From: Candidatus Gottesmanbacteria bacterium
GTDB lineage: Bacteria > Patescibacteriota > Microgenomatia > UBA10105 > UBA927
Reading direction: 5' to 3'
NCBI GenBank assembly: GCA_963714095.1
Contig: OY970230.1
Coordinates: 724,103 to 788,102, forward strand
Length of the DNA: 64,000 nt
Shown here: positions 1,287 through 60,162 of the stretch, piece after piece
Numbering within the stretch: position 1 is the first letter of the stretch
Layout: every line of letters starts with the position of its first letter
Made by a program: the position numbers and the translations under genes
Notes under the pieces: model-generated
Database searches by the model: none
What the model saw: only the letters and a program-made list of their open reading frames with translations
What the model was told of the DNA's origin: nothing

Positions 1287-1307
1287 CCTCAAAAACGCGT
1301 ATACTGG

Positions 1308-28462: not shown

Positions 28463-28535
28463 GGGCCCGAAGTTTACCTGGTTGAACGCATCATTTGCAA
28501 TGATGAGGTAGGCGGTTCGACTCCGCCCGGGTCCA
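28463..28535 (+). tRNA. tRNA-Ala (anticodon TGC)
   Basis: Cloverleaf folded by hand. 7-bp acceptor stem with G3:U70. Anticodon loop TTTGCAA. T-arm GGCGG-TTCGACT-CCGCC. No encoded CCA. Confidence 0.8.
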
Positions 28536-28801
28536 CAACACTTGTTTTGAGAATAGGTATTTATTTTTTTAATAAATATTTACTCTCGCGACAAGAGCGC
28601 GAACTGGCTCTTTAAAAACTGAACGACTTTTTCCATCGTGTAGGTGCAATTCCTATGATGGAGAGAAAGTTTTATTTTTTAACAAGTAGTTGCATCGTAA
28701 GGGGTAACCTAAGAAGGTTAACTTCTTACTTGCATATCAATTTTGTTGGAGAAAGAACAAAGCGAGTAATCTTGCCGTATGGCGGGATTGCCTCCTTTGT
28801 T

Positions 28802-37010: not shown

Positions 37011-37706
37011 ATGACCATATCTGTTGTTATTCCTGCCTATAACGAAGAGAAATATTTGCCGCGGACGATTGAATCACTGAAAAAATTAGATCGTAAACCG
37101 GATGAAATTATAGTTGTCGATGGCGGATCGACAGACAAAACCGCTGATATTGCCCGTCACCACGGCGCAATTGTGATTACTGTTGCTCACCGTGGAATCG
37201 GATTTGCGCGGGATAAGGGGCTGCAAAAAGCAACCTGCGATATTATTGCGTTTACCGATGCCGATACGGTAGTGCCGCGGGATTGGCTCACCAAAATTGA
37301 AGAAACATTGTCACGCCCGGGCGTCGTGGGGGTATTCGGTACATTCCGCGTACCGGACGGCTGGTGGGTGTACCGTTGGTATGTTAACTACTTTCAACCG
37401 TGGCTTAACCAGCTGTATTATTGGTTGGGAATTCCCATGGCAGCAGGCCAAAATATTGCATTTTTGCGGAAAATCGGACGCGCGGTCGGCGGATTTCCCG
37501 AGGATTATAAAATTGCGGAAGATATTGAAATGGCGACGCGTCTCAAAAAAGCAGGCAAAGTAATATTGCGGCAGGATCTTATTGTTTCCAGTTCGGGACG
37601 GCGGGGCAATGAAGGATTTAGCATGATGACGCGCGTCTTTAAAGCTTTTTTCCTCTATTTCATTTTCAAAAAAGCTAATAAGATAGGTTTCCCCGACATG
37701 CGGTAA
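37011..37706 (+). CDS. glycosyltransferase family 2
   Basis: N-terminus VVIPAYNEEKYL and a DAD motif. Confidence 0.7.
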   Translation: MTISVVIPAYNEEKYLPRTIESLKKLDRKPDEIIVVDGGSTDKTADIARHHGAIVITVAHRGIGFARDKGLQKATCDIIAFTDADTVVPRDWLTKIEETLSRPGVVGVFGTFRVPDGWWVYRWYVNYFQPWLNQLYYWLGIPMAAGQNIAFLRKIGRAVGGFPEDYKIAEDIEMATRLKKAGKVILRQDLIVSSSGRRGNEGFSMMTRVFKAFFLYFIFKKANKIGFPDMR

Positions 37707-38561: not shown

Positions 38562-38800
38562 CCTCGTTTACAATTTTTAACTTTTCGCGTCCCGTACACG
38601 GGTTCCCATCTCAAAGTAAAAAATTGTAAACTTCATGTATAGTAAGTTATCCAAGAGTTATCCACAATTATTTCATAGAAAAAATATAGAGCGCTAAAAC
38701 GTGCTGTTTAATACAAAATAAACTATAAGTTATTGATATTTCAGTAAGTAAAAAACCTATGGGTCTTGACACGCGGCAGCGGGCGTGATTGAATGGGACT

Positions 38801-38959
38801 ATGAAGATGAAACTTTTATTACAGCGAATGGGTTTGGGTAGCAAAGCAGAGCGTAAATCTCCGATAGCCCTCGAGCGGGAGCGATTTGAAGCAGAGGTGA
38901 AGGATCAGTTTAAAAAACTGAAGGATAAAGGGCTAAGTATACCGGTGTTTACTTTATAG
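38801..38959 (+). CDS. candidate small protein (52 aa), possibly leaderless
   Basis: ORF MKMKLLLQRMGLGSKAERKSPIALERERFEAEVKDQFKKLKDKGLSIPVFTL, below the 60-aa track cut-off. A perfect TTGACA -35 and an extended TG-n-TTGAAT -10 end 6 nt before the ATG. Confidence 0.25.
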   Translation: MKMKLLLQRMGLGSKAERKSPIALERERFEAEVKDQFKKLKDKGLSIPVFTL

Positions 38960-39404
38960 GGAAAAAAAAGCATCACTACCGCTAGACATGGTTAGGCTAC
39001 GAGTAGTAATGCCTTTTAGTGTAGGTATCATTTTTTGGGCAAAAGAATAATACCTAAGTGACAACGTATCAGTGCATACGTTTGTTGTCAAATAAATAAT
39101 TGAAGCTAAATTTCTTCTTTAGCCCGTTCGGTCGGGGTATTTGTACTTTTTAAAATTGTTATATCTTTTCCCCAGTTTTTTTATATTTTTTCCCACACAG
39201 TTGTTACGAATTTCTACGATGCAATATTCCGGTTGACAAGAATTAATTATCGATATACAATCGCGACGAGTCGGGCTAAAGATAAATTTCTGAGCAAGAA
39301 AAATGTCATTGAACAAATCGCGCGCCAGTTCTGTTTTGTAATGGGGGATTGATAGTTGGGCAGGCTGTCAATCTCCCTTAGAGAGCAGAACAACGCGCGA
39401 TTTT

Positions 39405-41042
39405 TTATTGGGTGAGCAAGTTGAGGAGATGTTCTCTCGAATACCGGCCGACATTTTGGAAAATCAGCACCGTTGGATGGTCAAAAACCTGGATAGATTC
39501 TTCCGCAATATCATCATTGACGGCGATTCCGAATAACTGGGGGTAGGAGGTAAACCTGCCTACTTCTTTGTATCCTAATGAACCGTCCAGCAGTCGCTGA
39601 TAAAACAATTTCGTCAGGGGGTATTTACCTCCTAAATACGGCATCGTTGCCCACATACGGCGTGTTGAGAGGATAATGAAATCTCCGACAACGAGTTTAT
39701 CGGCGTAGTAATTCTTTTTCGCATCGTTGTCTTCGTCATAGACCGTCAACAGTTCGCGGTTATACGAAATTTCACCAGGCAAATCTAACGGGAGACCGTC
39801 ATTCCAATGTTCCGTATAAATTTTGGCGCCGGCGGGGATATGGGCAAAAATCCACTCAGAAGCAGTAAAGCGTGTCTGCGGCCGCAGATATACGGTCCAG
39901 TTGGCCAACCCCCACAAAAAAGTAATGTTAAGTAAAAGAAGAGTGATGGCGACGCCGGAAACACGAAAGCGTTTTGTAAACGCGACACAAAGCCATGACG
40001 CGGCAATGGTTATAAACGGTAGAAACGGCACGTTATAGCGGTTAAACTTAGCAAACCACGAACCTACCCAGCCAAAATAGATGAGGGGAAAGATGAGAAA
40101 TACAGAATAGCCAATAGCCAAGGGTGAATGGGAAAATTTTTTTAGTTTTGTGAGTATTTGAATAACAATGACGATCAGTCCGATCATTCCGATGATGGAC
40201 AACGGTCCTGCCTGCCAGAGCATGGTTTCAATTTGGAAGAGGTACGGGGTGGTATGCAGAAATTGGAGCGTGTAGGGTACCGTAAAACGCCCCAGGGCCA
40301 CTCCGGATTCATACGTCATGGATTCGTAAAAATGACTGAAGTCTAAGAGCGTATACGGGGAAAAAAGAAAGAAAATGACACCGGCAATACCGCCAAGTAC
40401 CAATGTCGAGAGAATTTTTTTGGAGAGATGTTTGAAAAAACCATGCGGGAGCCAGATAGCCGAAAGGGGAATGAGGCCAAAGAGTAAACTGGTCGTTTTC
40501 GCCGCGAGTGCAAGACCCCAAACGAAGCCAAGTACTGCAATATTTTTTTTAGATATTTTTCTTGCGGCCAGAAGAAGTAAAAGAATAAAAAATACTAACA
40601 TGGTTTCCGTTGTTTCGAAATGTGCCTGTTGGATGGCCCAAGGGGAGAATGTAAGAAATGTCGCTGAGAGAACTCCGATTACGGGAGAAAAATACGCGGC
40701 ACCGGCCAGATAGATAAGCAAAATACTGAGAGTCGAGAGTGTCGCCGAGACGTATCGTCCGATGACGGCAATCCGGCCCCAATCCGTGAGCCACTGTGGA
40801 TTATGCGTTATTGCAACGACCCCTTCACCAAGCGCGCGGTAGAGATACACAGGCAATCCCCCGTAGGCGAAAAACTTCGGATTCAGCTGATCGAAAAAAT
40901 GGATCCGTGTGACGGCCCAGCTAATATTTCGTTCATCAGGATGGAAAGCCCCGTACGAATCCCAGTTGACGTTGGTGAGTCGGAGAATCCCGCCGACGAA
41001 CATAATGAAAATAAGAAGAATAAGAATATGTCCTTTTTTCAT
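39405..41042 (-). CDS. GT-C fold membrane glycosyltransferase (ArnT/PMT, GT39/83-like)
   Basis: 545 aa, at least 11 TM helices. First-loop acidic motif HPDER. Translationally coupled to the flavoenzyme gene upstream. Confidence 0.55.
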   Translation of the reverse strand: MKKGHILILLIFIMFVGGILRLTNVNWDSYGAFHPDERNISWAVTRIHFFDQLNPKFFAYGGLPVYLYRALGEGVVAITHNPQWLTDWGRIAVIGRYVSATLSTLSILLIYLAGAAYFSPVIGVLSATFLTFSPWAIQQAHFETTETMLVFFILLLLLAARKISKKNIAVLGFVWGLALAAKTTSLLFGLIPLSAIWLPHGFFKHLSKKILSTLVLGGIAGVIFFLFSPYTLLDFSHFYESMTYESGVALGRFTVPYTLQFLHTTPYLFQIETMLWQAGPLSIIGMIGLIVIVIQILTKLKKFSHSPLAIGYSVFLIFPLIYFGWVGSWFAKFNRYNVPFLPFITIAASWLCVAFTKRFRVSGVAITLLLLNITFLWGLANWTVYLRPQTRFTASEWIFAHIPAGAKIYTEHWNDGLPLDLPGEISYNRELLTVYDEDNDAKKNYYADKLVVGDFIILSTRRMWATMPYLGGKYPLTKLFYQRLLDGSLGYKEVGRFTSYPQLFGIAVNDDIAEESIQVFDHPTVLIFQNVGRYSREHLLNLLTQ

Positions 41043-42259
41043 TGTGCGAGAATTTTTTTTGCCGCGTTTATCCCTAATTCTACCGCATAATTGGTGCCTC
41101 GGTCCCAGGGGACAATGCTGTCCATGTTGGCGAGGTACACGTTTGGAATTGCGGTCACAAAACTTGGCGTGCGGGAGGAATAGTGAAGTTGGTGGACCGG
41201 TTGGGCAAAGGGAGCGGTAAACATAAATGAATTATAAATTTTGAATGGTGAACTGCGGGTTAAACGCTTAACGAACGGAAGAAAAACTTTCAACAATTGC
41301 TCTTTGGTCATCAATAAATATTTGTGTCCCTCCGGCAGGTAGTTGCCAAAATACGTGAGGTGGTGACCGCCGTAGTCTTTAGTATCCATAAAATTCGTGT
41401 GCGCCACTGCTGCCAAAAACGGGAATTTACGGTCGGTGATACTCAGCCAGTACACATCTGTAAGAATCGGTTTATCGGTTTCAAGAATTAACGTTTGGGC
41501 CCAGAGATGGGGGATGGGGCTAAACTGAATATCCTGATAGAGGTTTTTTGCTGTTTCGCTTGGAACGGTGAGTAAAACGGTATCAAAACCCGACAGGCTA
41601 CTCACCGATGCAACCCTTGTGTTTGTGTGAATAGTCCCGCCTTGTTTTTTAATAGCGCTTTCGAGCGCGTCTATGAGAGTTTTGAACCCTCCTTCCATGT
41701 ACATCAAATTTGCCGTGCGTTTTTTAATGCGTGCCCAAAACCACGCGGCTTGAACACGTGGCGCGAAATCACCGAATTTTCCGACAAGGAGTGGCTCCCA
41801 AAGTACTGTGTATGCACGGTTTCCGCCTATTGAGGTTAAAAGTTGTTCAGCGGTGAAATTTTCTAATGGTTTCCAAAACGGCGTGATTTTTAAGTAAGCA
41901 AGAAGCGCCGCAGTACGCAACTTATCAGAAATTGAGAGCCCCGGAAATCGCAGGAGATGTAGCGGGGAATCGAGCTGGTACGGTTTCCCGTTATAGAGAT
42001 TCGCCGTCACAGGACGCGTGATGATGATTTTATTTGTAAGTCCTAATTCTTTGATTAATTTGAGTACCGTACGGTCATTGGTAAACCAGTGATGGTAGGT
42101 ATTTTCGAGGTACCAATTCCAACCCGGTTTTTTGAATCCATATGCCAGCCCACCCAATACAGGCCCGGATTCAAAAAGCGTGACCTTGTGTCCGCGGCGG
42201 GTTAGCGTGTAAGCGGCGGATAAACCAGTGAACCCCCCGCCGATAACTGCAATATGCAT
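41039..42259 (-). CDS. FAD-dependent flavoenzyme, UDP-galactopyranose mutase-like
   Basis: N-terminal Rossmann fold VIGGGFTGLSAA. HHWFTND resembles the Glf HIFHTN motif. 406 aa. Confidence 0.45.
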   Translation of the reverse strand: MHIAVIGGGFTGLSAAYTLTRRGHKVTLFESGPVLGGLAYGFKKPGWNWYLENTYHHWFTNDRTVLKLIKELGLTNKIIITRPVTANLYNGKPYQLDSPLHLLRFPGLSISDKLRTAALLAYLKITPFWKPLENFTAEQLLTSIGGNRAYTVLWEPLLVGKFGDFAPRVQAAWFWARIKKRTANLMYMEGGFKTLIDALESAIKKQGGTIHTNTRVASVSSLSGFDTVLLTVPSETAKNLYQDIQFSPIPHLWAQTLILETDKPILTDVYWLSITDRKFPFLAAVAHTNFMDTKDYGGHHLTYFGNYLPEGHKYLLMTKEQLLKVFLPFVKRLTRSSPFKIYNSFMFTAPFAQPVHQLHYSSRTPSFVTAIPNVYLANMDSIVPWDRGTNYAVELGINAAKKILAQ

Positions 42260-42288
42260 GAGAAGATTGTAGCATTTTATTTCCGTTT

Positions 42289-44439
42289 TTGTCGTATAAT
42301 CTATCCATGCTTTCCGATTTGCCGATTATTTTTCAATGGTGGGCGACGCTGTTTTTGGTCGGTGCTGCGGCGTATCCGTTGACCCGTAAATTATTTCATG
42401 GATGGTTTGACGGGGGGTATTTGTTTGCAAAAGCCGTGGGAATGGCGACGGTCACCTATATTGTCTATCTCTTAGGAGTATTGCACGTTGCACCGTTTGT
42501 GCAGGCGACCGTGTGGGCGTCAATGGGGGGAGTATTTATTCTTGGAATGCTTATAAATAGAGGAAACCAGAGGAAGGAGAATACAAAGAAAAAAATTCTT
42601 CTCATGGTAGCGGAAGAGCTTTTCTTTGTGGCCGCACTTCTGTTTTGGTCCTGGGTGAAGGCGCACGAACCAAGCATCCGCAGCCTTGAAAAATTCATGG
42701 ACTTCGGGTTTACCAAATCCATCCTGGACAGCAGGTTTTTTCCGGCCCCGGATATGTGGTACGCCGGCGCGACGATTAACTATTATTACTTCGGACACAC
42801 TGTCATGGCGGTTCTCACACGGATCTCCGGCATCGATTTGACAACGACATTTAATCTCATGCTTGTGACGATATTTGCGCTCTGTTTCACGATGAGTTTT
42901 TCGATTGGAAAACAATTGATGCGGGGACTAAAAGGGATACGGGCAATCGGGGAAATCGGAGGAGGACTGTTGACCGCATTTCTCGTGACCCTTGCCGGCA
43001 ACATGCAGACAATCTATGCATTTACTCAGGGGTATGACGGAGACAAGGTTGTTCCGTTTTGGAAACTTCTGTGGCCCATCGGAGATTTTATAAAACGTTT
43101 ACCGGATGGCCTGAACCGTTATTGGTATCCGAACGCCACCCGTTTCATTCCGTTCACGATTCATGAATTTCCCAGCTATTCGTTTGTGGTGTCGGATGTC
43201 CACGGACATGTATTGTCCATACCGTTCGTGTTGCTTGCAATAGCGTTTCTTATAATAATTTGGGGAGACAAAGGAAATAAGGGTGATTGGGGCATGTATA
43301 TATTTTATGGGTTTCTTTGCAGCGTACTTCTCATGACTAACGCCCTTGACGGGCCGATATATCTGGGATTGTTCCTCATTTCTTTGGCGGTATTCAACGT
43401 ATTTTTTAAGAAACGTTCATGGGAAAAAGTCGCGATTATTGCCGGTACGGTTATCAGCACGGCCGGCGTCGTGAGTCTTCCGTTTTTGCTGTACTTTAAA
43501 TCGTTTGTCACCGGGGTTGCCGTCAATTGTCCGCCGACGGCGCTTGCTGATACAAAAATCGGGCCGATTCTTTTTGAGGGAGTTGAGAAATGTCAGCACT
43601 CGCCCTTGTGGATGATGTGGCTTTTGTGGGGATTTTTTATCTATTGCGGATTGTTTTTGGTTATTCCGCTGATCAAAAAAATTCGGATCAAAAAACAGAT
43701 AGAGCACCAGGAATTTTTGCTGTGCATATTGTTCGTGTTTTCGATACTCCTTATCATCTTTCCTGAATTTTTTTACTTTAAAGACATATATCCCACGTAT
43801 TTCCGCAGCAACACTATGTTTAAGCTTGGGTACCAGGCGTTCATCATGTTTTCGATTATCGCCGGGTATACCATCATGAAAATGGTCAGGCAGAAGAAGC
43901 GAGTGTTGTTTTTCCTGTTTCTGGCCCCGCAGCTGTTTTTGGTTTCCATATATCCGATTTTCAGCGTACGGTCGTATTTTGACAGCCTCAGAAATTATGA
44001 AGGGATCAACGGGAGCGGATGGATCAGCGCACAGTATCCGGATAATTGGGCGGGGATACTCTGGTTGAACGATCAGTATCGGCTTGGCCGGCTGGGGCAA
44101 AATCCGGTTATAGTCGAAGCGGACGGGGATAGTTATACGGACTACAACCAGGTGAGCGCGTTCACGGGGTTTCCGACGATTGTGGGCTGGTCGGTCCATG
44201 AATGGCTTTGGCGTGGGTCCTATGACGTGGTGGCGCCGCGCAAAGCGGAAGTGCAGCAGGTGTATGAATCAACGGATATCAATGAAACCCGTCAGATTCT
44301 GGCGAAATATCACGCCACGTATATTTTTGTGGGCACGCTGGAACGGGAGAAGTTTAAAGATATGCAGGAATGGAAATTCAAGGAGTTGGGAAATGCGGTC
44401 TTTACCTCCGGAACTACGGTGATCTACGCAGTCCATTGA
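42289..44439 (+). CDS. DUF2298 (Chlor_Arch_YYY) large polytopic membrane protein
   Basis: 716 aa with more than 12 TM helices. Conserved INYYYFGH (YYY) motif. Confidence 0.5.
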   Translation: MSYNLSMLSDLPIIFQWWATLFLVGAAAYPLTRKLFHGWFDGGYLFAKAVGMATVTYIVYLLGVLHVAPFVQATVWASMGGVFILGMLINRGNQRKENTKKKILLMVAEELFFVAALLFWSWVKAHEPSIRSLEKFMDFGFTKSILDSRFFPAPDMWYAGATINYYYFGHTVMAVLTRISGIDLTTTFNLMLVTIFALCFTMSFSIGKQLMRGLKGIRAIGEIGGGLLTAFLVTLAGNMQTIYAFTQGYDGDKVVPFWKLLWPIGDFIKRLPDGLNRYWYPNATRFIPFTIHEFPSYSFVVSDVHGHVLSIPFVLLAIAFLIIIWGDKGNKGDWGMYIFYGFLCSVLLMTNALDGPIYLGLFLISLAVFNVFFKKRSWEKVAIIAGTVISTAGVVSLPFLLYFKSFVTGVAVNCPPTALADTKIGPILFEGVEKCQHSPLWMMWLLWGFFIYCGLFLVIPLIKKIRIKKQIEHQEFLLCILFVFSILLIIFPEFFYFKDIYPTYFRSNTMFKLGYQAFIMFSIIAGYTIMKMVRQKKRVLFFLFLAPQLFLVSIYPIFSVRSYFDSLRNYEGINGSGWISAQYPDNWAGILWLNDQYRLGRLGQNPVIVEADGDSYTDYNQVSAFTGFPTIVGWSVHEWLWRGSYDVVAPRKAEVQQVYESTDINETRQILAKYHATYIFVGTLEREKFKDMQEWKFKELGNAVFTSGTTVIYAVH

Positions 44440-47279: not shown

Positions 47280-47290
47280 AAATACCTTTG

Positions 47291-47361
47291 TGGACCCGAG
47301 GGGAATTGAACCCCTTTCTACTCCATGCCATGGAGTCGTTCTACCGGTATACTACGGGCCC
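47291..47361 (-). tRNA. tRNA-Ala (anticodon GGC), with a weak D-stem (A12/A23 mismatch)
   Basis: Hand-folded. Acceptor GGGCCCG/CGGGUCC with G3:U70. Anticodon loop AUGGCAU. T-arm AGGGG-UUCAAUU-CCCCU. Confidence 0.6.
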
Positions 47362-47399
47362 CGGTGTGTGGTGTGGCGTCGCGATTACGCGACATCCTG

Positions 47400-47472
47400 T
47401 GGACCTGAGCGGAATCGAACCGCTGATCTCCGCAATGCGAATGCGGCGCATTACCAGCTGTGCTACAGGCCC
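47400..47472 (-). tRNA. tRNA-Ala (anticodon CGC)
   Basis: Hand-folded. Acceptor GGGCCUG/CAGGUCC with G3:U70. Anticodon loop UUCGCAU. T-arm AGCGG-UUCGAUU-CCGCU. Confidence 0.8.
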
Positions 47473-47868: not shown

Positions 47869-50238
47869 TCAGTGTGAGATATTTGTAGCTTTCTTGTCAA
47901 CCCCCAGTTTTTTGAGAACGAACCAGACAAGAAGAGAAATAAGGAGGAGAAATTCCGTCCAGAGCAGGAATACTTTAAGAGTTGATGGCTGATAGCTGGC
48001 CACAATAGTATGGGTACCGGCAGTAACGGGTATGCCGATAAAGAAGGGGAAGGTGATGATTGGTGCGACTACTTCACCATCTACGGTGATGTGCCAGTCG
48101 GGGTGGTAGGTCTGTTTTAAAATAACCAAACACTGAGTACAATGCTCCGGTACGCTTACACGGGCAGTGAAAATCATATCCGTGTCGTCGGTTTGATCTG
48201 TGATTTTTATCTTCCCTACACTACTTAGGTCAGCTACATAGCGGGGAGGTTCAGAAAATACGTTATGGATTTTATTGTCAGGAGTTATAAATGTTACCTC
48301 ATCGGTCATTTTGAAATTCGGTAGCCCCACATTTACCGGATAATTTTTGGTGTCAAAACTAAGCTGCGGATACAAGCCGTTTTTGGGGTCGTCAGATTGG
48401 ATCCAGAGGCGTATGACGTTGGTGAACGAATATTTATCGGATGCAACGATTGCAGGGCGCACACCGGCAGTAAAATAGCCGGATGCCGGTACCTCATAGA
48501 GCTTCCATGAAGGATTTTCTTTCAGTAATTTCCAAAACGGCTGGATGTTACCTTTGGGGAGATTTGCGGGGGTCGCGACATACCGGATGTTGTACAGCGC
48601 ATAATCCTCGGCATGATCTTCGCGGAAATATTGTTCGGTGTCGCTATTGGGTGACCAGGTTTCCGGAAGCCATAATACGGTCGGCAGTGCAAAATTAGAC
48701 AGATACATATACATCGGCGTTTCGGCAATCCGGAAATCACGTCCCCAGGATCCGCCGCGTCCGGCGAAGACCCTGCCCGGTGCTGTTTTCTGAAGGGTGA
48801 GGAGTGTTGAAACAAGCGCGTTGGTATCAGCAGACTGTTCGACATAATTGCCGTTGGCCCGTGCGATGAGCGTATCGTTGTATTGTGAATAGCGGAAAGT
48901 TTGGCCGTAGACCGCGGGAAAGATAAAAACGACAATCAGAATTAACGTTATCATTTTTATATATTTTTTAGGAGCAAGAATAACGCGGCTGAGCCATTCA
49001 GTTACTTTTTCCCATATTAATGTCAGCCCGAACGGCGCCAAAAACAGCCCTGCCGCGTGAACGCCGACGATGAAGCGTGATTGATGAAATTCGGTCATGG
49101 AGGGAATAATATTGAGCAAATTTCCCCACGTCGTTCTGCCGAAGTAGAGGAGGAGGAAAAAGAAAAAGAGAAGAGTAAATGGAACAGAGTCGGCAGCAAA
49201 TAGTCCGACAAGCACAAGTCCGGTCATAACCGGCAGCCTGCCGAAATCAAAGAGTGCGCCGTTTCCAAGTCTTGCGACAACCTCTTTGGCGCCGTATGAA
49301 TTGAATTTCCACACGGGATCCCAGAATGAAAAGTTGTGGAATTTGTCTAAAAGCATAGCGGGGATAATCCAATAGCTTAAAAATACGAGTGCAATTGCCG
49401 CGATACCGGATAATAGAACGGCATTTTTCTTCAATGGTTTGACGATGTCTTTTATTGACTGCCGGCGGAAAAACGCAAGGATGGGCGCAGCTGCGGCAAG
49501 AGGAACGAGGCTTAAAAATGCCATAACGCCTATCCCGATATGCCCGGCAGTTGTGAAAATAAGAAATACTATTGCAAAGAAAAAATCCGAAGGTATTTTT
49601 ATTCCGAATTTTATATTTTGTGTTGTATATTTTTTAAAACATCTGTATGCATACGCGAGAGCCAGCGGCAGCCATACCATGGCAAACAGTTGGCTTGACA
49701 GGCCGTAGCCGCGCCATAAAAATGACGACGGATCAAGGCCGTAGAATCCATCTGTGGAGATCTGCGAAGCCAACAATGCCGCCAGTCCTGCAGTCATCCA
49801 GGATGCGCCGGTGACCTGCACTGCCAAAAATACCGAAAGCGGGAAGAGACAAAGGAGGAGATAGATGATGAGGTGGTAGTACTGAAATAAACTGACGGAA
49901 CTGGTGAATACCTGGATCATTTTCCACGACCCGACGATGAGGACCTGCGGCACGTGGGAATAATAAAAGGGCAGATTATATCCTTCATTCCAGTTTGGCA
50001 CCCAGTGATCGGCAAGATAGGAGAAGTGACATATGGGAAAAGTCAGTATATTTCCTGAACACTTTTTATCTGCAAAATCCCATATTTGGTTTGTCCGGTA
50101 GACCAGCGCGTATTGGAAAGCATTATCATTCGGATCCACCTGCGCCGTGGGCTCCGTCCGGTACAGCCACAGGTTAAACCCGACGGCGAACAGGAGCATT
50201 GCAACGGAAATAATTTTCTCACTGTTTATTTTTTTCAT
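47869..50238 (-). CDS. large polytopic membrane protein, GT-C/YfhO-like
   Basis: 789 aa. The N-terminal half has more than 12 TM helices and a DPND first-loop motif. The C-terminal part is an extracytoplasmic domain of about 300 aa. Confidence 0.45.
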   Translation of the reverse strand: MKKINSEKIISVAMLLFAVGFNLWLYRTEPTAQVDPNDNAFQYALVYRTNQIWDFADKKCSGNILTFPICHFSYLADHWVPNWNEGYNLPFYYSHVPQVLIVGSWKMIQVFTSSVSLFQYYHLIIYLLLCLFPLSVFLAVQVTGASWMTAGLAALLASQISTDGFYGLDPSSFLWRGYGLSSQLFAMVWLPLALAYAYRCFKKYTTQNIKFGIKIPSDFFFAIVFLIFTTAGHIGIGVMAFLSLVPLAAAAPILAFFRRQSIKDIVKPLKKNAVLLSGIAAIALVFLSYWIIPAMLLDKFHNFSFWDPVWKFNSYGAKEVVARLGNGALFDFGRLPVMTGLVLVGLFAADSVPFTLLFFFFLLLYFGRTTWGNLLNIIPSMTEFHQSRFIVGVHAAGLFLAPFGLTLIWEKVTEWLSRVILAPKKYIKMITLILIVVFIFPAVYGQTFRYSQYNDTLIARANGNYVEQSADTNALVSTLLTLQKTAPGRVFAGRGGSWGRDFRIAETPMYMYLSNFALPTVLWLPETWSPNSDTEQYFREDHAEDYALYNIRYVATPANLPKGNIQPFWKLLKENPSWKLYEVPASGYFTAGVRPAIVASDKYSFTNVIRLWIQSDDPKNGLYPQLSFDTKNYPVNVGLPNFKMTDEVTFITPDNKIHNVFSEPPRYVADLSSVGKIKITDQTDDTDMIFTARVSVPEHCTQCLVILKQTYHPDWHITVDGEVVAPIITFPFFIGIPVTAGTHTIVASYQPSTLKVFLLWTEFLLLISLLVWFVLKKLGVDKKATNISH

Positions 50239-52100
50239 AAATAGAGTTTCGGATTTAACCAGTCCGCATGGTCATCGGTAATCCCGTCGCCGGCATCGGT
50301 AACAACCAACTTCAGTGTCTTTACACCGGTGATTGTTACATCCGCATGCCGCGGAAGATCATACCGGCCTATTTTTTTGGACGCAAATAAGAGTGTATCA
50401 TCCCCATACACTTCAAATACGACCGTTCCTCTGGGACCCGCCTCCGTATCTACGCCGTAATCGAATGAAAACAGGGTAAAATGCCCTGCGACATCGAACG
50501 TTTGGGTGCTGTTTGCATGTGTCCCAATCCCGCGCCGGTAAAATGCATATTGGACTGAAAGAGCGCTCCATTTATCAAATCCTGCCGACGCGTTGACCGG
50601 CATATTAATTTCACGCTGTCCATAGTCCTGGCTGAAGGCAAACGGAGTGAGCGTGGTGAGCGATACCGGCCCATGGGTTATAAGCGGCATATTTTTTGCA
50701 GTGATGGCAAGAGCAACAAACGCAACCGGCCACAGAAATGTCCAGAATGTTATGTCGCGTCGTATGGTGTACAGGAACCAAAGAAACAGACCGATGAAAA
50801 TGAGGGAAACGCTGATTGTCAGGTTGGGTTGGATAAGTGATGAAAGAACCGGAAATCCGTTGTGGGGATAATTGAAGACGAGCGCGGTATGGAGATTATA
50901 AAAATAGAGAAGAGAGAAGAGAATATAAAAAAAAGAGAAGATACGAAAAGGTTGGTTGGTAAAAGTCTGTAGACTCTCTTTTTTTGTCAGGCGCATACGG
51001 ATCCAAAAGACGCCCCAGAGGAGTACGAAGACTATAAGCGGAAATGCATAGCGGTCATGTGACTCGGTCTCGAACAGGAAGAAAGAGGCATTGGCAATGA
51101 TAATTGCACTAAGAAAGCGGTAAATTGTATCGGATTCGTTTTCTTTTTTGTTTTGCAGAAACGCAAAGGGTTTCATGATAAGCGCTGCAAGCAAATATCC
51201 TGCGGAAAAAAGAGAGAGCCCCACCGTTTTAGCGTTTGCCAAACCCACAGAAAGTAATTTGTCTGAAAACTGCATTCCGTGGGCGCGAGCGACTATCCAC
51301 CAGAGGTTAAATGCGTTTAAAGACAGCCATGGGAAATAGTCATAATTGCCCGTGAGCGATTCAATAACTTTCCCCATGCCGCCGGACAGGATAAATTCGA
51401 TATTAAGACCCGCAAATGTTACGAGTGACCCCGCAAGTCCCTGCACAAGACCTTCAAACCCTGCATATTGCCAGAGAAATAGGAAAAAAATAGGTCCGTA
51501 AATCATGTTTTGAAGTTTCGTCATCATGGCGAGCATATACACCATGCCGGCAAGAAATGGTTTCTTTTTAAGGACAAGAAGGAACGCGCCCAGAAATACG
51601 ATGACACCGAGACTGTCTACCTGGCCCCACCACGCGCTGTCCATCCATGAAACAGGGTTAAGAAGATACACAACAGCAAGCAGCCCGTAGAAATATACCG
51701 GGAAATCAGGAAATCCGATTTTTTTTGCGTTCTTGCCGATCCAGAGGAAGAGAGCCGCGATACCGAAGTCTGCAATAATTGCAGGCATTTTGGAAACGAT
51801 TAAAAACAAAAGATTGGTATTTTGCCAATATTGATTAAAATTATGCGGGTCCGCAAATAACCGGTACATGGCCGGCATGAGTGCCAGAAAGTAGCCAAAC
51901 GGGGTAGGGTAGTTAAAATTCGTGACTGAGAGTCCCTTAACGATTCCGAAATCGAGTACCGCCAATCCCCATGACTTCCAAAATGAGACATCCGCTTCAA
52001 AACCGGGATTGGGGATAAGAAGAAGACGGATGATGAAGGCGAGAATGAATCCTGTAATCAGTATGATCGGCAGGGAGGATTTTTTCATTGTTTTTCCCAC
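50235..52100 (-). CDS. GT-C-like membrane glycosyltransferase fused to C-terminal NPCBM carbohydrate-binding module
   Basis: N-terminal TM domain of about 470 aa. The C-terminus TVVFEVYGDDTLLF...VTITGVKTLKLVVTDAGDGITDDHADW matches the NPCBM/NEW2 consensus. Confidence 0.6.
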   Translation of the reverse strand: MGKTMKKSSLPIILITGFILAFIIRLLLIPNPGFEADVSFWKSWGLAVLDFGIVKGLSVTNFNYPTPFGYFLALMPAMYRLFADPHNFNQYWQNTNLLFLIVSKMPAIIADFGIAALFLWIGKNAKKIGFPDFPVYFYGLLAVVYLLNPVSWMDSAWWGQVDSLGVIVFLGAFLLVLKKKPFLAGMVYMLAMMTKLQNMIYGPIFFLFLWQYAGFEGLVQGLAGSLVTFAGLNIEFILSGGMGKVIESLTGNYDYFPWLSLNAFNLWWIVARAHGMQFSDKLLSVGLANAKTVGLSLFSAGYLLAALIMKPFAFLQNKKENESDTIYRFLSAIIIANASFFLFETESHDRYAFPLIVFVLLWGVFWIRMRLTKKESLQTFTNQPFRIFSFFYILFSLLYFYNLHTALVFNYPHNGFPVLSSLIQPNLTISVSLIFIGLFLWFLYTIRRDITFWTFLWPVAFVALAITAKNMPLITHGPVSLTTLTPFAFSQDYGQREINMPVNASAGFDKWSALSVQYAFYRRGIGTHANSTQTFDVAGHFTLFSFDYGVDTEAGPRGTVVFEVYGDDTLLFASKKIGRYDLPRHADVTITGVKTLKLVVTDAGDGITDDHADWLNPKLYL

Positions 52101-52729
52101 CCGACACTGTCAACGATTTTTGTAAAGAGAGCAGGATCCAGACTTCCCTGACTGAGATGGATGACATATTGGGGCGCTCCCGCGACCTCAAAAAAGATAT
52201 CCAGATTCGGTGACCCGTTTGCCGTATTGAGAAACTTTACCGTATAGCCTTTAAGCCCTTGGCTGTTGGTAAATGATTCGATACTTGCGACTCCGGTCAG
52301 TCCGCCGAACTGTTTCCACCAGGCGTTTATGTAGACTGTTTTCGGTTGGTTGATATAGATGCTCTCCGCAGTATTTTTTTTAAGGTCATCTACCCCGATA
52401 AGGACATGGGAGGAAGGATTGTCGCCGGCAAGCGCGTACATATCGTACGAGTCATGGGGAAATGTTGTGAGATTGAGGTTTCCCGGCACGCTGAATGTGT
52501 AGGGATAAAGATTTCCTTTTACGGTGTGCCATGCGTTGTTGAGGGTTGGTTGGGCAGTAGGAGTATTTTGTGGCCCAAGATAGGTATTGCCTGCGGGGAT
52601 GACTATCGTTCCGACGCGTCCCGCAATTTGACGGTACTGGAGCACAACCACTATGATGCCCACAATGGTGAAGGTAACTGCGACTACAACAGCTTTATTA
52701 TAGGAAGATATTTTATTTTCCACACACAC
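52085..52729 (-). CDS. signal-anchored secreted hypothetical protein
   Basis: 214 aa. N-terminal TM helix, then a Thr/Asn-rich beta-rich domain. First gene of the minus-strand operon. Confidence 0.4.
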   Translation of the reverse strand: MCVENKISSYNKAVVVAVTFTIVGIIVVVLQYRQIAGRVGTIVIPAGNTYLGPQNTPTAQPTLNNAWHTVKGNLYPYTFSVPGNLNLTTFPHDSYDMYALAGDNPSSHVLIGVDDLKKNTAESIYINQPKTVYINAWWKQFGGLTGVASIESFTNSQGLKGYTVKFLNTANGSPNLDIFFEVAGAPQYVIHLSQGSLDPALFTKIVDSVGWEKQ

Positions 52730-52745
52730 ATAGTATCATAAAAAC

Positions 52746-54425
52746 TTGTACAATAGGGAGCATATGCGGCGAGTATATTGGGGAGCATTAATTTTTTTCT
52801 TCTTACTGTTTTCTCTCGTGCCGACGTTTTATGAATTGTCGCGGCAGGGAGATCTTCAGCCGGACCGGCAGTTTGAACTCGTCCATAATTTTTATACCGA
52901 TTATAATTTTTATCTTTCCCGGATCCGTGAAGGGAGGGAAGGCGCCTGGACTGTGACGGAAAAGTATACGTCAGAGCCTCACGCGGGATCCTACGTCCAG
53001 ATTATGTATCTTCTGATGGGAAAAGTGTCTGCATGGTTTGACGTGCCGTGGAGTAACAGTGGTGATACGTATCACACAGCACGGATAGTCCTTGCGGCTT
53101 CACTATTATTTGTTCTGTCATATGCAGCCAAATGGGCATTTGAGCGGTTCCGTTCTTGGTGGCAGATTGCCGCATTCCTGCTTGCCGTAACAGCCGGGAG
53201 CTGGCCGTTATTAGTGTTTCACCAGGGGGAATGGCGCTTCGGTGGATACATGCCGTGGTGGAGTCTTATGGATAATTTACAACGGATTACGTTTATTCCG
53301 CATATGCTTGCAGGACAGATTCTCATTGTATTCCTTCTGGTTGCAATGGCGCATGCTCCAACCATGAGCCGCGCGGGTAACTGGATATTCCTGGGTTTTT
53401 TAGCGTTTTTACTCGGCGTCGTATTTCCGGCGGGCCTGGGGTTTGTCGCTGCCGCGTGGGGAATATTTATCATCATTGATCTTTTGTGCCGATTGCCGAT
53501 CCCGCGGAAAGAAAGACAGCCGTGGATATTCACACGCATCGTAGGACCCGCCATCATCGGTCTTATGAGTACGCCGACACTTCTTTATTTTTCCCTTATT
53601 ATGAAAATTTACCCGTGGAAGCGGCTTATTGATTATTCAATACTGCACCCGCCGCCGTTTAATCTCGGGGAATATCTCTTGGCTGTGGGACCCATGCTCG
53701 TTTTGGGCGCAATCGGCGGATTATTGGTATTAGTCAAACGGGAGCGCCGGCTTCTCGTGTTTGTGGCGTGGGTAGTTGCGTGGATCGTACTTATTATTGT
53801 TTTTCAATACATCCCCCAGGAGTCACCCCTCAGATTTACGGAAATGCTCCCGCAGGTGCCGCTGGGATTCCTTGCGTGTTATCTTTTCTACGAGTTGTAC
53901 CGGATGTTTATTAAACCGTACCGGTATCTTTTTATCATCATTCCTTCATTTTTGGTTTTAGTGGGGTTGGGACAAATGTACTCATCCTGGCGGTGGCAAA
54001 AAGAATTTATTGATCAGAAAATTTCAGCGACGCAGCCACTCGTTCCCACAGGAAGTTATGTGATGTACCCGTTAAAGGATTTTGTTGCCGCAATAGTATT
54101 TCTTCAGGACCATACGAGCCGCGACACGGTTATTCTTAGTGAAACGACTGCGGGAAACTACATACCGGTTTACTCCGGCAATACCGTGTATGTGGGGCAG
54201 GCAAATACCGTTAACACCGAGCAAAAAGAGCCCGTTGTCAAAGATTTTTTCGCAGGAAATATGACGAGCGCCCAAGCTCAGTCTTTTTTGAAGGAAAATA
54301 ATCTGCATTATATTTTTTTCGGACCGCAAGAATCAGAGGATGGAGGGATTATGGATTTGGCGGAAACATACTCGTTTTTGAATCAAATATACCAAAATAA
54401 TCATGTGAGGGTTTATACGTGGTAA
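52746..54425 (+). CDS. large polytopic membrane protein (GT-C-like)
   Basis: 559 aa, more than 12 TM helices. First gene of the plus-strand glycosylation operon. Confidence 0.45.
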   Translation: MYNREHMRRVYWGALIFFFLLFSLVPTFYELSRQGDLQPDRQFELVHNFYTDYNFYLSRIREGREGAWTVTEKYTSEPHAGSYVQIMYLLMGKVSAWFDVPWSNSGDTYHTARIVLAASLLFVLSYAAKWAFERFRSWWQIAAFLLAVTAGSWPLLVFHQGEWRFGGYMPWWSLMDNLQRITFIPHMLAGQILIVFLLVAMAHAPTMSRAGNWIFLGFLAFLLGVVFPAGLGFVAAAWGIFIIIDLLCRLPIPRKERQPWIFTRIVGPAIIGLMSTPTLLYFSLIMKIYPWKRLIDYSILHPPPFNLGEYLLAVGPMLVLGAIGGLLVLVKRERRLLVFVAWVVAWIVLIIVFQYIPQESPLRFTEMLPQVPLGFLACYLFYELYRMFIKPYRYLFIIIPSFLVLVGLGQMYSSWRWQKEFIDQKISATQPLVPTGSYVMYPLKDFVAAIVFLQDHTSRDTVILSETTAGNYIPVYSGNTVYVGQANTVNTEQKEPVVKDFFAGNMTSAQAQSFLKENNLHYIFFGPQESEDGGIMDLAETYSFLNQIYQNNHVRVYTW

Positions 54426-54435
54426 GGTAAACTAT

Positions 54436-55974
54436 ATGATTCTCGGAAAAAATCGTTTATGGGGACTGTGCATTGGGGTACTTCTCGTTGGAATTCTCCT
54501 TTATCTTTTATATTGGCGTTGGCAGGTAAGTCAGATTAGGTATTTTGATATTGATGAATTTTTACACCTGCATTTGACGGCAGAGCTTGTCCGGGGGGAG
54601 CGGCTATATATTGATTTTATTACGTACTTTTCTCCCGGATTTATGTGGGTACTCGCGCCGCTGTTTTGGATTTATGGCGTTTCATTTCAAATATTTATCG
54701 CAGCGCGCGAGCTATCATTCTGCATATTTTTGGCACTCCTTTTTGTTCTCTGTATTCTGTTTGGGTATACGCGATCGTGGCGTTGGGCTCTGCTTCCGGT
54801 CATTATTTTGGCATTTTTGCCGATGCCGTACGACAAATTTTTAGAAGTGAGACCCGATACGATAGCTACACTTCTTGCATGTGCAGCGCTACTCACGGAA
54901 GTTATCGCAATTAGAAAGATACATGTGATGCGTTTATGGTGTCTGTGCGGATTTTTGTATGGCATATCGTTTTTATTTCTTATCAAAATGGCGCCGTTTC
55001 TTCTTGCCGGGTGGATAGTCGCGATGGTAGTGAGTTTTCAACGGGTAGGCACGAAAAATAAAAAAACTGCTTGGGCAAACCTGATTGCCATGACCGGAGG
55101 ATTATTGATTGCGCTATGTGGATTTTTCGGGTGGGCTGCGTTAACCGGAGGTCTGCAGGTAACATTGTACTCGGTAGTGCAAATGCCATTTGAAATCTCT
55201 AATCATTTTCAGGGGGGGTATTATCTGGCACCGTTTTTATTTTTCTATCCGAACGCATTATTCTACGGCGGCGATGGCGTTTCACTTTCAGCAGGATTAC
55301 TTATGAATAATGCACTATGGATATTTGCGTCCATGGTTGGTGTATATCGTTTGCTTACGCCGTATCTGAAAGCTCAGGGAAATAGGGAGAAGATGCAAAT
55401 TGAACTCCTCCTTGCACTTACGTTTGTATTCGCGGGCATAGGATTTATAAAGTTTTCTCCGGTCAAGTATAGCCAGTATCTCATTCCGACTGCTGTATTT
55501 ATAGCGTACTATGCAGCTGATGGTATATCTCTTTTTTTTGACTGGCTTGCAAGTGTCGGCGGATATCCGTCACTTGCGATTGCCTTGGTTGGACTGGGAT
55601 ATGTACTTGTTACAGTGACCCAATCAATTAATGCTCCGAAGATTTTGTCAACAAATGCCGGACAGCGTACGGAATTTGACCGATTGTTGGCTACCGTGCC
55701 ATTGTCGGCCCGTGTCGTGGATCTGGAAGGTAAAATGATATTTTGGCCTGACGGATACCCAATGTGCTGTATGTCGCTTGAAGATTTTGTGCCGTATATT
55801 TCTCACGGGCCGCCATCTTTAGCAACGTATTTATCTCTTCACCTGGCCGATTATCTGTATGACGGAACCACAAATAGACTCACAAGTCTTTTCCCTGAAA
55901 ATGTTGCATATATAAAATCACACTTTGCACTGGTCCCGGGATGGGGGAGTAGTTTGTGGAAACGGATTCAATGA
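54436..55974 (+). CDS. GT-C fold glycosyltransferase (GT39/ArnT-like)
   Basis: 512 aa, multiple TM helices. First-loop acidic motif FDIDEFLH. Confidence 0.55.
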   Translation: MILGKNRLWGLCIGVLLVGILLYLLYWRWQVSQIRYFDIDEFLHLHLTAELVRGERLYIDFITYFSPGFMWVLAPLFWIYGVSFQIFIAARELSFCIFLALLFVLCILFGYTRSWRWALLPVIILAFLPMPYDKFLEVRPDTIATLLACAALLTEVIAIRKIHVMRLWCLCGFLYGISFLFLIKMAPFLLAGWIVAMVVSFQRVGTKNKKTAWANLIAMTGGLLIALCGFFGWAALTGGLQVTLYSVVQMPFEISNHFQGGYYLAPFLFFYPNALFYGGDGVSLSAGLLMNNALWIFASMVGVYRLLTPYLKAQGNREKMQIELLLALTFVFAGIGFIKFSPVKYSQYLIPTAVFIAYYAADGISLFFDWLASVGGYPSLAIALVGLGYVLVTVTQSINAPKILSTNAGQRTEFDRLLATVPLSARVVDLEGKMIFWPDGYPMCCMSLEDFVPYISHGPPSLATYLSLHLADYLYDGTTNRLTSLFPENVAYIKSHFALVPGWGSSLWKRIQ

Positions 55975-57629: not shown

Positions 57630-57668
57630 CGTACGCAACTTGCCTCTCGTGATACAATCTTCTGAGAC

Positions 57669-58403
57669 ATGAAATCATTTGTGCAACCGCATTTGAGTCT
57701 CATTTTGCCCGTGTACAACGAAACCAACCGTCTGGTGCAGGGTCTTACAGCATCCCTTTCATATTTACAAAAGCAAACGTATCCGTGGGAGCTCATTCTT
57801 GTTGATGACGGGTCGCGTATCCCCGTGCGGGAGGTTTTAAAAGGGACACCCATTGCCCGCCGCATGCAGAAGCTTCCGGTTGCCATCCTTCGTCTGCCCA
57901 AAAATTCCGGCAAGGGCACTGCGATTGCCCGTGGTGTTGCGGCAGCGCGGGGGAAATACATCGTATTCAGCGATGTAGATTTTTCGGTGGATATAACAAC
58001 ATTGTCGGTTGTGCTTTCTGCACTGACTGAGGCTTCTGTAGTTATCGCTTCAAGGCGGGCTCCGGGAGCAGTCATCAGCACACACCAACCGATCCTGAGG
58101 GAAACTGCAGGGAGGCTGTTTACCTATTGGTCTAATACCCTTTTGGGTTTACGCGTGTATGACAGTACGTGCGGGTTTAAGGGGTTTCAGCAGAAGGCTG
58201 CCAAACGGTTGTTTAATAATATGGTTATCGGCGGATGGGTGTTTGATGCCGAGGTTCTTTGGCGGGCGCGGCGGTGGAATATGCCGATCGTTCAGGTTCC
58301 GGTTCACTGGTCAGATAAAAAAGGGACGCACGTACATATCCCCGATGTTCTCCGTTCCTGGATGGATCTTTTTAGACTTTGGGCACACGTGAGTAGTTTG
58401 TAG
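57669..58403 (+). CDS. GT2 polyprenyl-phosphate sugar synthase (Dpm1/ArnC-like)
   Basis: LSLILPVYNE, the LVDDGS DxD-type motif and FSDVDFS. Confidence 0.65.
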   Translation: MKSFVQPHLSLILPVYNETNRLVQGLTASLSYLQKQTYPWELILVDDGSRIPVREVLKGTPIARRMQKLPVAILRLPKNSGKGTAIARGVAAARGKYIVFSDVDFSVDITTLSVVLSALTEASVVIASRRAPGAVISTHQPILRETAGRLFTYWSNTLLGLRVYDSTCGFKGFQQKAAKRLFNNMVIGGWVFDAEVLWRARRWNMPIVQVPVHWSDKKGTHVHIPDVLRSWMDLFRLWAHVSSL

Positions 58404-58406
58404 TAT

Positions 58407-59138: not shown

Positions 59139-59176
59139 TTTGATTATAGTACTACAAACGTAGTATCCTAGCCGGG

Positions 59177-60157: not shown

Positions 60158-60162
60158 AATCC

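Follow-up and report, generated by a model that had tools for sequence, protein, structure and literature searches.

The 64,000-nt window analysed here, a stretch of contig OY970230.1 from a Candidatus Gottesmanbacteria bacterium, carries three adjoining genes that encode a flavin adenine dinucleotide (FAD)-dependent flavoprotein, a GT-C membrane glycosyltransferase and a polytopic DUF2298 protein (Table 1; coordinates are positions in the window, and L and P numbers denote related loci and proteins). We propose that this locus is probably a compact extracytoplasmic glycosylation module acting on lipid-carried sugars, in which the flavoenzyme would be a dedicated accessory of the GT-Cs that tailors the polyprenyl-phosphate-linked donor or carrier. 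An earlier sequence-only reading of the same DNA had reported the three open reading frames (ORFs), a 4-nt overlap between two of them and the divergent DUF2298 gene, and all of these are found where it placed them.

Table 1. Features of the three-gene locus, by position in the window.
Feature	Position	Strand	Remarks
PMT_2-type GT-C membrane glycosyltransferase, 545 amino acids (aa)	39405-41042	-	ORF; distal gene of the bicistronic unit
ATGA overlap: TGA stop of the flavoprotein gene, ATG start of the GT-C gene	41039-41042	-	sequence reads ...gcacaATGAaaaaagga...
FAD-dependent flavoenzyme, 406 aa, NF005560/PRK07233, amine-oxidase/phytoene desaturase (PDS)/protoporphyrinogen oxidase (PPO) fold	41039-42259	-	ORF
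Divergent intergenic region, 47 bp, with back-to-back -10-like hexamers	42260-42306		consensus matches only
DUF2298 / Chlor_Arch_YYY polytopic protein, 710 aa from the ATG	42307-44439	+	family models; GT-C-like

The ATGA shared by the flavoprotein stop and the GT-C start implies that the two genes are translationally coupled. The same 4-nt overlap is present in L082, a 73%-identical relative (731-kb contig) that has the trio in the same gene order, and in L085, where the order is reversed to PMT_2 then flavoprotein and the overlap is retained. As the trio recurs in L082 and across 80 related loci, it is not a chance adjacency. The third ORF was called mechanically from a TTG at 42289 (42289-44439, + strand, 716 aa); a start at the ATG at 42307 is more likely, given that homologues align from residue 1-3 of the protein read from there. 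On the + strand a TATAAT (42295-42300) lies 6 nt ahead of this ATG, and its counterpart on the - strand, ACGACA-18-TACAAT with a TG, stops at 42266, 6 nt ahead of the flavoprotein ATG at 42259. Because a -10-like hexamer ends 6 nt before the ATG on each strand, the flavoprotein and DUF2298 mRNAs may both be leaderless, if these consensus matches act as promoters.

The flavoprotein is a full-length member of NF005560 with a PDS/PPO-like fold

The flavoprotein begins with MHIAVIGGGFTGL, a Rossmann motif, and carries YHHWFTND at residues 55-62, as the sequence-only reading had noted (an N-terminal Rossmann fold and HHWFTND in a 406-aa protein). NF005560 (PRK07233) is the sole NCBIfam family whose curated cut-off it passes, with 365.9 bits against 252 and residues 1-404 aligned to profile positions 1-429 of 435, making it a full-length member. 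Pfam searches return a full-length Amino_oxidase match, the best domain, and NAD_binding_8. The second-best NCBIfam model is that of the isoprenoid enzyme HpnE (100.4 bits against a cut-off of 283, residues 3-236). The PPO model TIGR00562 reaches 48.7 bits against 97.85 and covers the N-terminal 208 residues only, the PRK11883 models at most 37 bits against cut-offs above 500, and the PRK07208 models are also below cut-off. The carotenoid models fare similarly (crtI_fam 46 bits against 238, PDS 33.9 against 569, and zeta-carotene desaturase, ZDS, also far under its cut-off).

Sequence searches of the PDB, with the single protein and with a 98-sequence profile, matched PF1083, PPO, PDS, L-amino-acid oxidases (LAAO) and monoamine oxidase (MAO). 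We modelled the structure from a 98-sequence alignment, with a predicted local distance difference test score (pLDDT) of 93.8; this model replaced a weaker one from 20 close homologues (pLDDT 72). The modelled fold is nearest to PDS and PPO, and the PDS group, with the highest fold similarity, comprises the nearest relatives without extending membership to the flavoprotein. The protein has neither a signal peptide nor a transmembrane (TM) segment and is cytoplasmic. Between homologues from the candidate phyla radiation (CPR) and from Chloroflexi, 55 residues are invariant, and this signature is kept in the fusion proteins described below.

Operons and gene fusions tie the flavoprotein to lipid-linked glycosylation

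We sampled the neighbourhoods of 80 loci from species-representative genomes, all of them Microgenomates or Chloroflexota, and clustered their ORFs. Of the 65 loci with a neighbour, 32 have a GT-C paralogue immediately downstream of the flavoprotein on the same strand, and most of these 32 pairs overlap or are separated by gaps of less than 35 nt. Five further loci read flavoprotein, then UbiA, then GT-C. DUF2298 lies within 10 kb of the flavoprotein in 31/71 loci, divergent or on the same strand: in Gottesmanbacteria-type loci it is upstream and divergent, whereas Levyibacteria-type loci have it downstream on the same strand, in the order flavoprotein, GT-C, (GT-C), (short-chain dehydrogenase/reductase (SDR), small haloacid dehalogenase (HAD)-like protein), DUF2298. 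The Chloroflexota locus L058 combines DUF2298, two PMT_2-like genes, LPG_synthase_TM and the flavoprotein. As the coupling survives inversion, reordering and transfer between phyla, it indicates selection rather than inherited gene order.

The same association is seen within single proteins. A profile search of 1.84 billion representatives at 50% identity gave 1,460 NF005560 clusters below E = 1e-30, and among the best 150 of these, five carry extra domains. Two are fused to GtrA modules, P0388 (GtrA_DPMS_TM, then the flavoprotein) and P0378 (GtrA, flavoprotein and two GT2 domains in succession). In P0345 an LPG_synthase_TM domain precedes the flavoprotein, and a GT2 gene upstream overlaps by 4 nt (L087); P0379 joins a 7-TM GT-C-like domain, matched at 90% by hhalign to the window GT-C family, to the flavoprotein; and P0279 is a flavoprotein followed by an S-adenosylmethionine (SAM) methyltransferase. 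The genes around the fusions encode GT2s, PMT and PMT_2 GT-Cs, GT-C_AftD, methyltransferases, an SDR and an aminotransferase. All of the fusion partners belong to polyprenyl-phosphate-dependent glycosylation, and that the flavoprotein is joined directly to membrane modules speaks for a substrate carried on a lipid, not a soluble one. Together, the conserved operons and the gene fusions bear out the earlier suggestion that the flavoprotein is a functional part of a GT-C/DUF2298 glycosylation machinery.

The family fused in P0345 is also the usual upstream neighbour of the flavoprotein in Chloroflexi. In six Chloroflexota loci (L021, L027, L058, L072, L074, L076), LPG_synthase_TM, which resembles the MprF flippase domain, usually lies upstream, and a UDP-glucose 6-dehydrogenase gene lies downstream in 5/6 of them; the L072 locus stops at the flavoprotein gene.

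In about 30 loci (L016-L079) the flavoprotein cluster has type IV pilus genes on its upstream side. In the Levyibacteria type these encode PilN, PilO, a small protein and an Ig-domain (Big_13) protein; the stop codon of the last of these genes overlaps the start of the flavoprotein gene. In the Gottesmanbacteria loci L020 (11280-18793) and L078 (11288-18657), PilB, PilC and several pilins lie between the flavoprotein and the UbiA/GT-C genes. A preprint (bioRxiv 10.1101/2020.04.19.049825) describes TfpW-dependent arabinofuranosylation of Pseudomonas pilins. The recurrent pilus neighbours recall the TfpW system and suggest by analogy that pilins or Ig-domain surface proteins may be the acceptors of the glycan.

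The GT-C and DUF2298 partners

Residues 96-218 of the 545-aa protein match PMT_2 (PF13231), with 30.4 bits against a cut-off of 26.1, and the protein is polytopic, with about 10 hydrophobic segments. Searches of NCBIfam gave no match and a sequence search of the PDB no usable one. Orthologues of 41-60% identity adjoin the flavoprotein in five related loci (L001, L013, L034, L036, L065), and another is found in L082. HPDER (residues 33-37), which comes after the first hydrophobic segment, is by its position a candidate for the acidic catalytic motif of the first extracytoplasmic loop of GT-Cs.

The DUF2298 protein matches PF10060 at E = 3.4e-95 (320 bits against 27.8) and TIGR03662, Chlor_Arch_YYY, at 462.9 bits against a cut-off of 300.25; it contains the NYYYFGH motif and about 10 hydrophobic segments. 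The PDB sequence search again gave no usable match, and we found no functional literature on DUF2298, PRK07233 or TIGR03662/Chlor_Arch_YYY. Compared directly with the window GT-C family by hhalign, DUF2298 scores 73.6% over 70 columns only. A chain of profiles connects the two more firmly. DUF2298 matches the GT-C paralogue family c11, which often lies 3' of the flavoprotein in Gottesmanbacteria, at 98.3% probability over 464 columns; c11 matches the window GT-C family (PF13231) at 94.7%; and the window family matches c20, a PMT_2 family from the related loci, at 99.2%. By this transitive homology the DUF2298 protein is GT-C-like, in keeping with the sequence-only reading, which had presumed it to be a glycosyltransferase.

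A proposed role in tailoring the lipid carrier

We infer the substrate, chemistry, topology and acceptor of the flavoenzyme as follows. At the cytoplasmic face of the membrane, the flavoenzyme would bind a polyprenyl-phosphate-linked substrate, and its flavin would alter this substrate prior to flipping of the donor. The co-translated PMT_2-type GT-C and the divergent DUF2298 protein would then transfer the sugar to an extracellular acceptor. The chemistry that we tentatively favour, at somewhat under an even chance, is reduction or isomerisation of a C=C bond near the phosphate of the polyprenyl carrier, which would give a dolichol-like, non-allylic carrier.

Several observations point to chemistry on the carrier chain. 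The closest relatives, PDS and HpnE, act on isoprenoids. The 55 invariant residues stay constant while the donor genes vary (UbiA with phosphoribosyl pyrophosphate (PRPP), GT2 with UDP-sugar, or none), which argues for a substrate that is common or at the level of the carrier. As precedents, RetSat and BfaA share the amine-oxidase fold and reduce C=C bonds of lipids, BfaA together with a methyltransferase; the methyltransferase fusion P0279 recalls BfaA/BfaB and counts for the same chemistry. L089 has a ferredoxin gene next to its flavoprotein-GT2 pair, and L083 has one for a flavin reductase at a distance of about 4 kb. To our knowledge, CPR bacteria generally lack a quinone-based respiratory chain, which makes a net oxidase less attractive in these anaerobes than a reductase or a redox-neutral enzyme.

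A number of points weigh against this interpretation. NCBIfam titles NF005560 'hypothetical protein' only and, the family being without an assigned function, membership names the flavoprotein and does not explain it. Among the invariant residues, Trp, Tyr, His, Arg, Asp and Asn are prominent, so that the site resembles a sugar/phosphate pocket more than an isoprenoid tunnel that is hydrophobic throughout. In many Chloroflexi loci the flavoprotein lies among housekeeping genes, and the coupling to GT-Cs is therefore not universal. Each fusion protein occurs on one or two metagenomic contigs, so single fusions could be artefacts of assembly or gene calling. In the window we identified no flippase, with GtrA absent among the ORFs scanned, and no conserved donor synthase adjoins the trio. 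Finally, in some relatives UbiA adjoins the flavoprotein (L019, L031, L037, L048, L059, L014) and an SDR lies within 10 kb in 13/71 loci, neighbours that fit a sugar epimerisation of the DprE1/DprE2 kind at least as well.

A pentofuranose pathway in relatives and the DprE1 alternative

UbiA lies directly 3' of the flavoprotein in five loci (L019, L031, L037, L048, L059) and is divergent from it in L014 and L064. In NCBIfam these UbiA proteins match decaprenyl-phosphate phosphoribosyltransferase models best, with scores of 177-201 bits that fall just short of the cut-offs (207-234). At L014 5647-11242, genes for an SDR, a HAD-like protein, UbiA and the flavoprotein lie side by side, and a pair of SDR and HAD-like genes follows the GT-Cs in about 13 Levyibacteria-type loci. 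The HAD label of this family (c8) was given by eye from an N-terminal DxDxV-like motif, with no significant Pfam or NCBIfam match.

Kelly et al. 2024 (PMC11127046) describe how alpha-pentofuranoses are added to bacterial glycans by a UbiA-type polyprenyl-phosphoribose synthase, a HAD phosphatase, a flippase and a GT-C, with an SDR epimerase (for xylofuranose, Xylf) or DprE1/DprE2 (for arabinofuranose, Araf) acting on the lipid-linked sugar. The stretches L014 5647-11242 and L019 9561-19879 resemble a complete polyprenyl-phospho-pentofuranose gene set in CPR bacteria: both hold a phosphoribosyltransferase-like UbiA, a small HAD-like protein, several GT-Cs, a GT4 and a methyltransferase, and L014 alone adds an extended SDR.

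The sequence-only reading had suggested that, if the flavoprotein is a mutase, a furanose donor, by analogy with mycobacteria, feeds this machinery. That logic stands in part, in that UbiA, HAD-like and SDR genes lie beside the flavoprotein in some relatives; the route is that from PRPP rather than to UDP-galactofuranose (UDP-Galf), and no UbiA, HAD-like (c8) or SDR gene was found in the 64-kb window. Judged from gene content, these relatives appear to hold a mycobacterial-type furanose donor pathway from PRPP, not UDP-Galf.

The flavoenzyme might accordingly be pictured as an analogue of DprE1, oxidising a hydroxyl group on a sugar linked to polyprenyl phosphate, such as the 2'-OH of polyprenyl-phosphate-ribofuranose, after which a partner SDR or the same reduced flavin would re-reduce the other face to give an Araf- or Xylf-type donor for the GT-Cs. 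We consider this rather unlikely, although it accounts for much of the gene context. The flavoprotein adjoins the phosphoribosyltransferase-like UbiA; L014 offers one candidate enzyme for each step of a polyprenyl-phosphate-arabinose-type pathway; and the SDR and HAD-like pair recurs 3' of the GT-Cs in the Levyibacteria-type loci. The invariant residues are polar and aromatic, and a gene of the GT-C_AftD type adjoins one fused homologue. GtrA is associated with the flavoprotein family by fusion and with the mycobacterial system by neighbourhood, and the GtrA-flavoprotein fusion mirrors the mycobacterial gene grouping Rv3789 (GtrA family)-dprE1-dprE2. That pentofuranose systems use auxiliary epimerases on the lipid-linked sugar (PMC11127046) also speaks for it.

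Against this, an SDR within 10 kb is confined to 13/71 loci and UbiA to 9/71, and both are missing from the window; no homologue of DprE1 or DprE2 was found. The same conserved active site is found beside GT2 (hexose-type) donor synthases. The Citrobacter system manages epimerisation with a single SDR and without a flavoenzyme, and the paper that describes it mentions no flavoenzyme of the PDS/amine-oxidase fold (PMC11127046). DprE1 has the vanillyl-alcohol oxidase (VAO)/FAD_binding_4 fold and the flavoprotein the PDS/PPO fold; since the folds differ, the likeness to DprE1 is by analogy only. A net oxidase would also require an electron acceptor, and we know of none in CPR fermenters.

The flavoprotein lies outside the UGM family

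The sequence-only reading had likened the flavoprotein to a Glf-type UDP-galactopyranose mutase (UGM), and neither an assignment to that family nor the Galf donor that it would imply is supported. When Glf, PPO and amine oxidase profiles are compared, as that reading had advised, PF03275 (Glf) is absent among the Pfam matches at E <= 0.1; Amino_oxidase and NF005560 lead, followed by HpnE, PPO and CrtI. In the reverse direction, the flavoprotein family hidden Markov model (HMM) reaches only 24.5 bits on E. coli Glf, and most of the match is in residues 6-174, the N-terminal FAD-binding part. Among PDB sequence matches, a eukaryotic UGM aligned over the first 50 flavoprotein residues only, no bacterial UGM was among the best 60, and the closest structural neighbours of the model are PDS and PPO, not UGMs. 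A tblastn search of the window with E. coli WbbI and Glf gave nothing better than E = 0.28, so that a Glf- or WbbI-like gene is not apparent there.

The resemblance to Glf is nonetheless real over parts of the protein. By hhalign, the family profile aligns to E. coli Glf at 84.5% probability over 298 columns, with moderate alignment confidence, and YHHWFTND aligns to Glf AHIFHTND. In the active site, Glf Arg170, Arg174 and Tyr181 align to the invariant Arg177, Arg181 and Tyr187, but opposite the essential Arg278 stands Ala283, conserved in at least 90% of the family (numbering checked on the E. coli Glf sequence; the essential UGM arginines, E. coli Arg170 and Arg278, correspond to K. pneumoniae Arg174 and Arg280), and Tyr151 is replaced by Leu157. 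His59 and Glu298 are replaced by Phe59 and Asn306, and Trp156 becomes Phe162, a conservative change. Non-Glf profiles thus match best and UGM catalytic residues are replaced, the combination that the sequence-only reading had itself named as speaking against a mutase. We judge from these alignments that the likeness to Glf lies at the superfamily level. Phytoene desaturases, too, have the HxF core and a basic stretch ahead of the GG motif, which would make these features not specific to UGM.

A divergent, UGM-like enzyme could still be envisaged, a redox-neutral pyranose-furanose mutase acting on a nucleotide- or lipid-linked sugar and feeding a furanose donor to the GT-C. His56, Thr-Asn-Asp 60-62, the three Arg/Tyr residues and NxTDxxxP[FY]xxxxxHxxF all align to Glf, the length of 406 aa is closer to that of bacterial UGMs than to that of PPO, a redox-neutral flavoenzyme would fit an anaerobe, and the GT2-domain fusions are compatible with a supply of UDP-sugar. 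Set against the missing PF03275 match, the nearly invariant alanine at the Arg278 position, the altered pocket, the closer PDS/PPO structures, the window's want of a Galf-transferase-like gene, and fusions to GtrA, LPG_synthase_TM and GT-C-like modules that favour a lipid-linked over a soluble substrate, these points leave such a mutase highly improbable.

We rejected membership of the PPO, amine oxidase and carotenoid desaturase families on scores below cut-off and on gene context. That the flavoprotein is an ordinary housekeeping oxidoreductase of one of these kinds, with glycosyltransferase neighbours that are inherited gene order without functional meaning, is the least probable reading and a very remote one: the Joint Genome Institute (JGI) often labels homologues 'protoporphyrinogen oxidase', Amino_oxidase is the best Pfam domain and unrelated housekeeping genes are neighbours in several Chloroflexi loci, but PPO, CrtI, PDS, ZDS and HpnE all fall far below their cut-offs while NF005560 passes, the annotated neighbourhoods showed no haem or carotenoid genes, the GT-C coupling outlasts changes of order and strand and spans two phyla, and all five of the different fusion partners belong to lipid-linked glycosylation.

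Other genes in the window and in related loci

Microgenomates, the CPR group to which Gottesmanbacteria belong, are unusually rich in GT-C genes, and this window holds at least 8 GT-C-like ORFs. Immediately 3' of the GT-C gene, 843 bp (38562-39404) are without an ORF of 66 aa or more, a tRNA or an Rfam match (E <= 1); the equivalent stretch of L082 has a 54-aa ORF only. The strongest sigma-70-like site of the region, TTGACA-17-TACAAT on the + strand (39233-39261), is aimed into the 3' end of the GT-C gene. Lying 1.7 kb beyond that gene, between radA and a PIN-TRAM gene, is a soluble 231-aa GT2 (37011-37706) whose best NCBIfam model, TIGR04283, is below cut-off; because the syntenic L082 lacks it, it is probably outside the conserved module.

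A second, larger glycosylation island spans 47869-63375. It encodes a YfhO-like protein (789 aa), a GT87-like protein with NPCBM (621 aa), two PMT_2 proteins (557 and 528 aa), GT2s of 244 aa and 326 aa, the latter with TM segments, and one methyltransferase. Its four unannotated ORFs comprise three polytopic proteins of 512-559 aa (9-11 hydrophobic segments) and one of 214 aa (one segment). GT2s with TM segments lie at 57.7-60.2 kb of the window, and the first three island genes are also near the flavoprotein in L078 and L082. At the other end of the window (243-3013), a GT4 gene is followed by those for an ABC ATPase and an ABC-2 permease. This layout is Wzm/Wzt-like and suggests that a glycan made in the cytoplasm is exported. 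The window also carries three tRNA-Ala genes (28463-28536, 47290-47361 and 47399-47472; anticodons TGC, GGC and CGC), two of them in tandem between an M23 peptidase gene and the YfhO-like gene. In two related, near-complete Gottesmanbacteria genomes, giant ORFs with called products of 13,555 residues (L084 1-2946) and 7,176 residues (L085 1-3235) end a few kb from the DUF2298/flavoprotein locus.

Significance and comparison with known systems

GT-Cs, with their lipid-linked donors, make a large part of the cell surface in each of the three domains of life, and GT-C glycosylation on lipid-linked sugars is well known. Our literature search on GtrA, an FAD-dependent oxidoreductase and a GT-C (the Kelly et al. 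paper, a commentary and reviews) brought up no apparent flavoenzyme of this fold, and one on prokaryotic polyprenol reductases nothing relevant; a PDS-fold flavoenzyme as a fourth component, with a DUF2298 partner, was not found described in the literature searched. Co-translation with GT-Cs and fusions to GT-C, GtrA, GT2 and flippase-like modules point to a donor- or carrier-tailoring step that has not been described. In its broadest form, our proposal is that NF005560 is an unrecognised fourth component of polyprenyl-phosphate/GT-C glycosylation in CPR, Chloroflexi and other lineages, either a carrier C=C reductase or a non-homologous replacement for DprE1, and we put its chances at a little short of even.

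In either form, DUF2298 would be a cognate new GT-C family. If the enzyme acts on the lipid, a dolichol-like carrier pool would be dedicated to the GT-C and DUF2298 enzymes, some bacteria would make dolichol-like carriers, and the flavoprotein would be a candidate prokaryotic polyprenyl reductase. If it acts on the sugar, epimerised furanose donors would be made, and it would be a second, independent solution to the step catalysed by DprE1, a tuberculosis drug target. The proposal gives a testable role to two large families, NF005560 (about 1,460 clusters) and DUF2298, and corrects the widespread automatic 'protoporphyrinogen oxidase' label on NF005560 proteins.

Among flavoenzymes, the isoprenoid group of PDS, CrtI, HpnE and RetSat is separated from the flavoprotein by family cut-offs that it misses widely, by a carotenoid or hopanoid gene context that is absent around its loci, and by invariant residues more polar than expected of a carotenoid tunnel. 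Glf (PF03275) is set apart by its pocket residues, its Pfam family and its more distant structure, and no less by the flavoprotein family's fusions to membrane modules. With the mycobacterial arabinan system (DprE1/DprE2, Rv3789 and Emb/Aft) the likeness would be a flavoenzyme acting on a lipid-linked sugar upstream of GT-Cs, a role that is here proposed; the UbiA-type phosphoribosyltransferase and SDR neighbours are shared with that system in relatives only.

The closest parallels are the three-component systems GtrA/GtrB/GtrV, CsbB/GtcA/YfhO, ArnC/ArnEF/ArnT and the pentofuranose systems (PMC11127046), in which a polyprenyl-phosphate-linked monosaccharide donor is used by an extracytoplasmic polytopic GT-C. 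The present system shares with them its PMT_2-type GT-Cs, the UbiA, HAD-like and SDR proteins of its relatives, and the fusions to GtrA-like and GT2 modules. Unlike them, the trio in the window is without an adjoining donor synthase or flippase. A PDS/amine-oxidase-fold flavoenzyme was found in none of the three-component systems consulted, whereas here it is the most constant partner of the GT-Cs, and the DUF2298 protein is, in comparison with those systems, an additional, GT-C-like partner.

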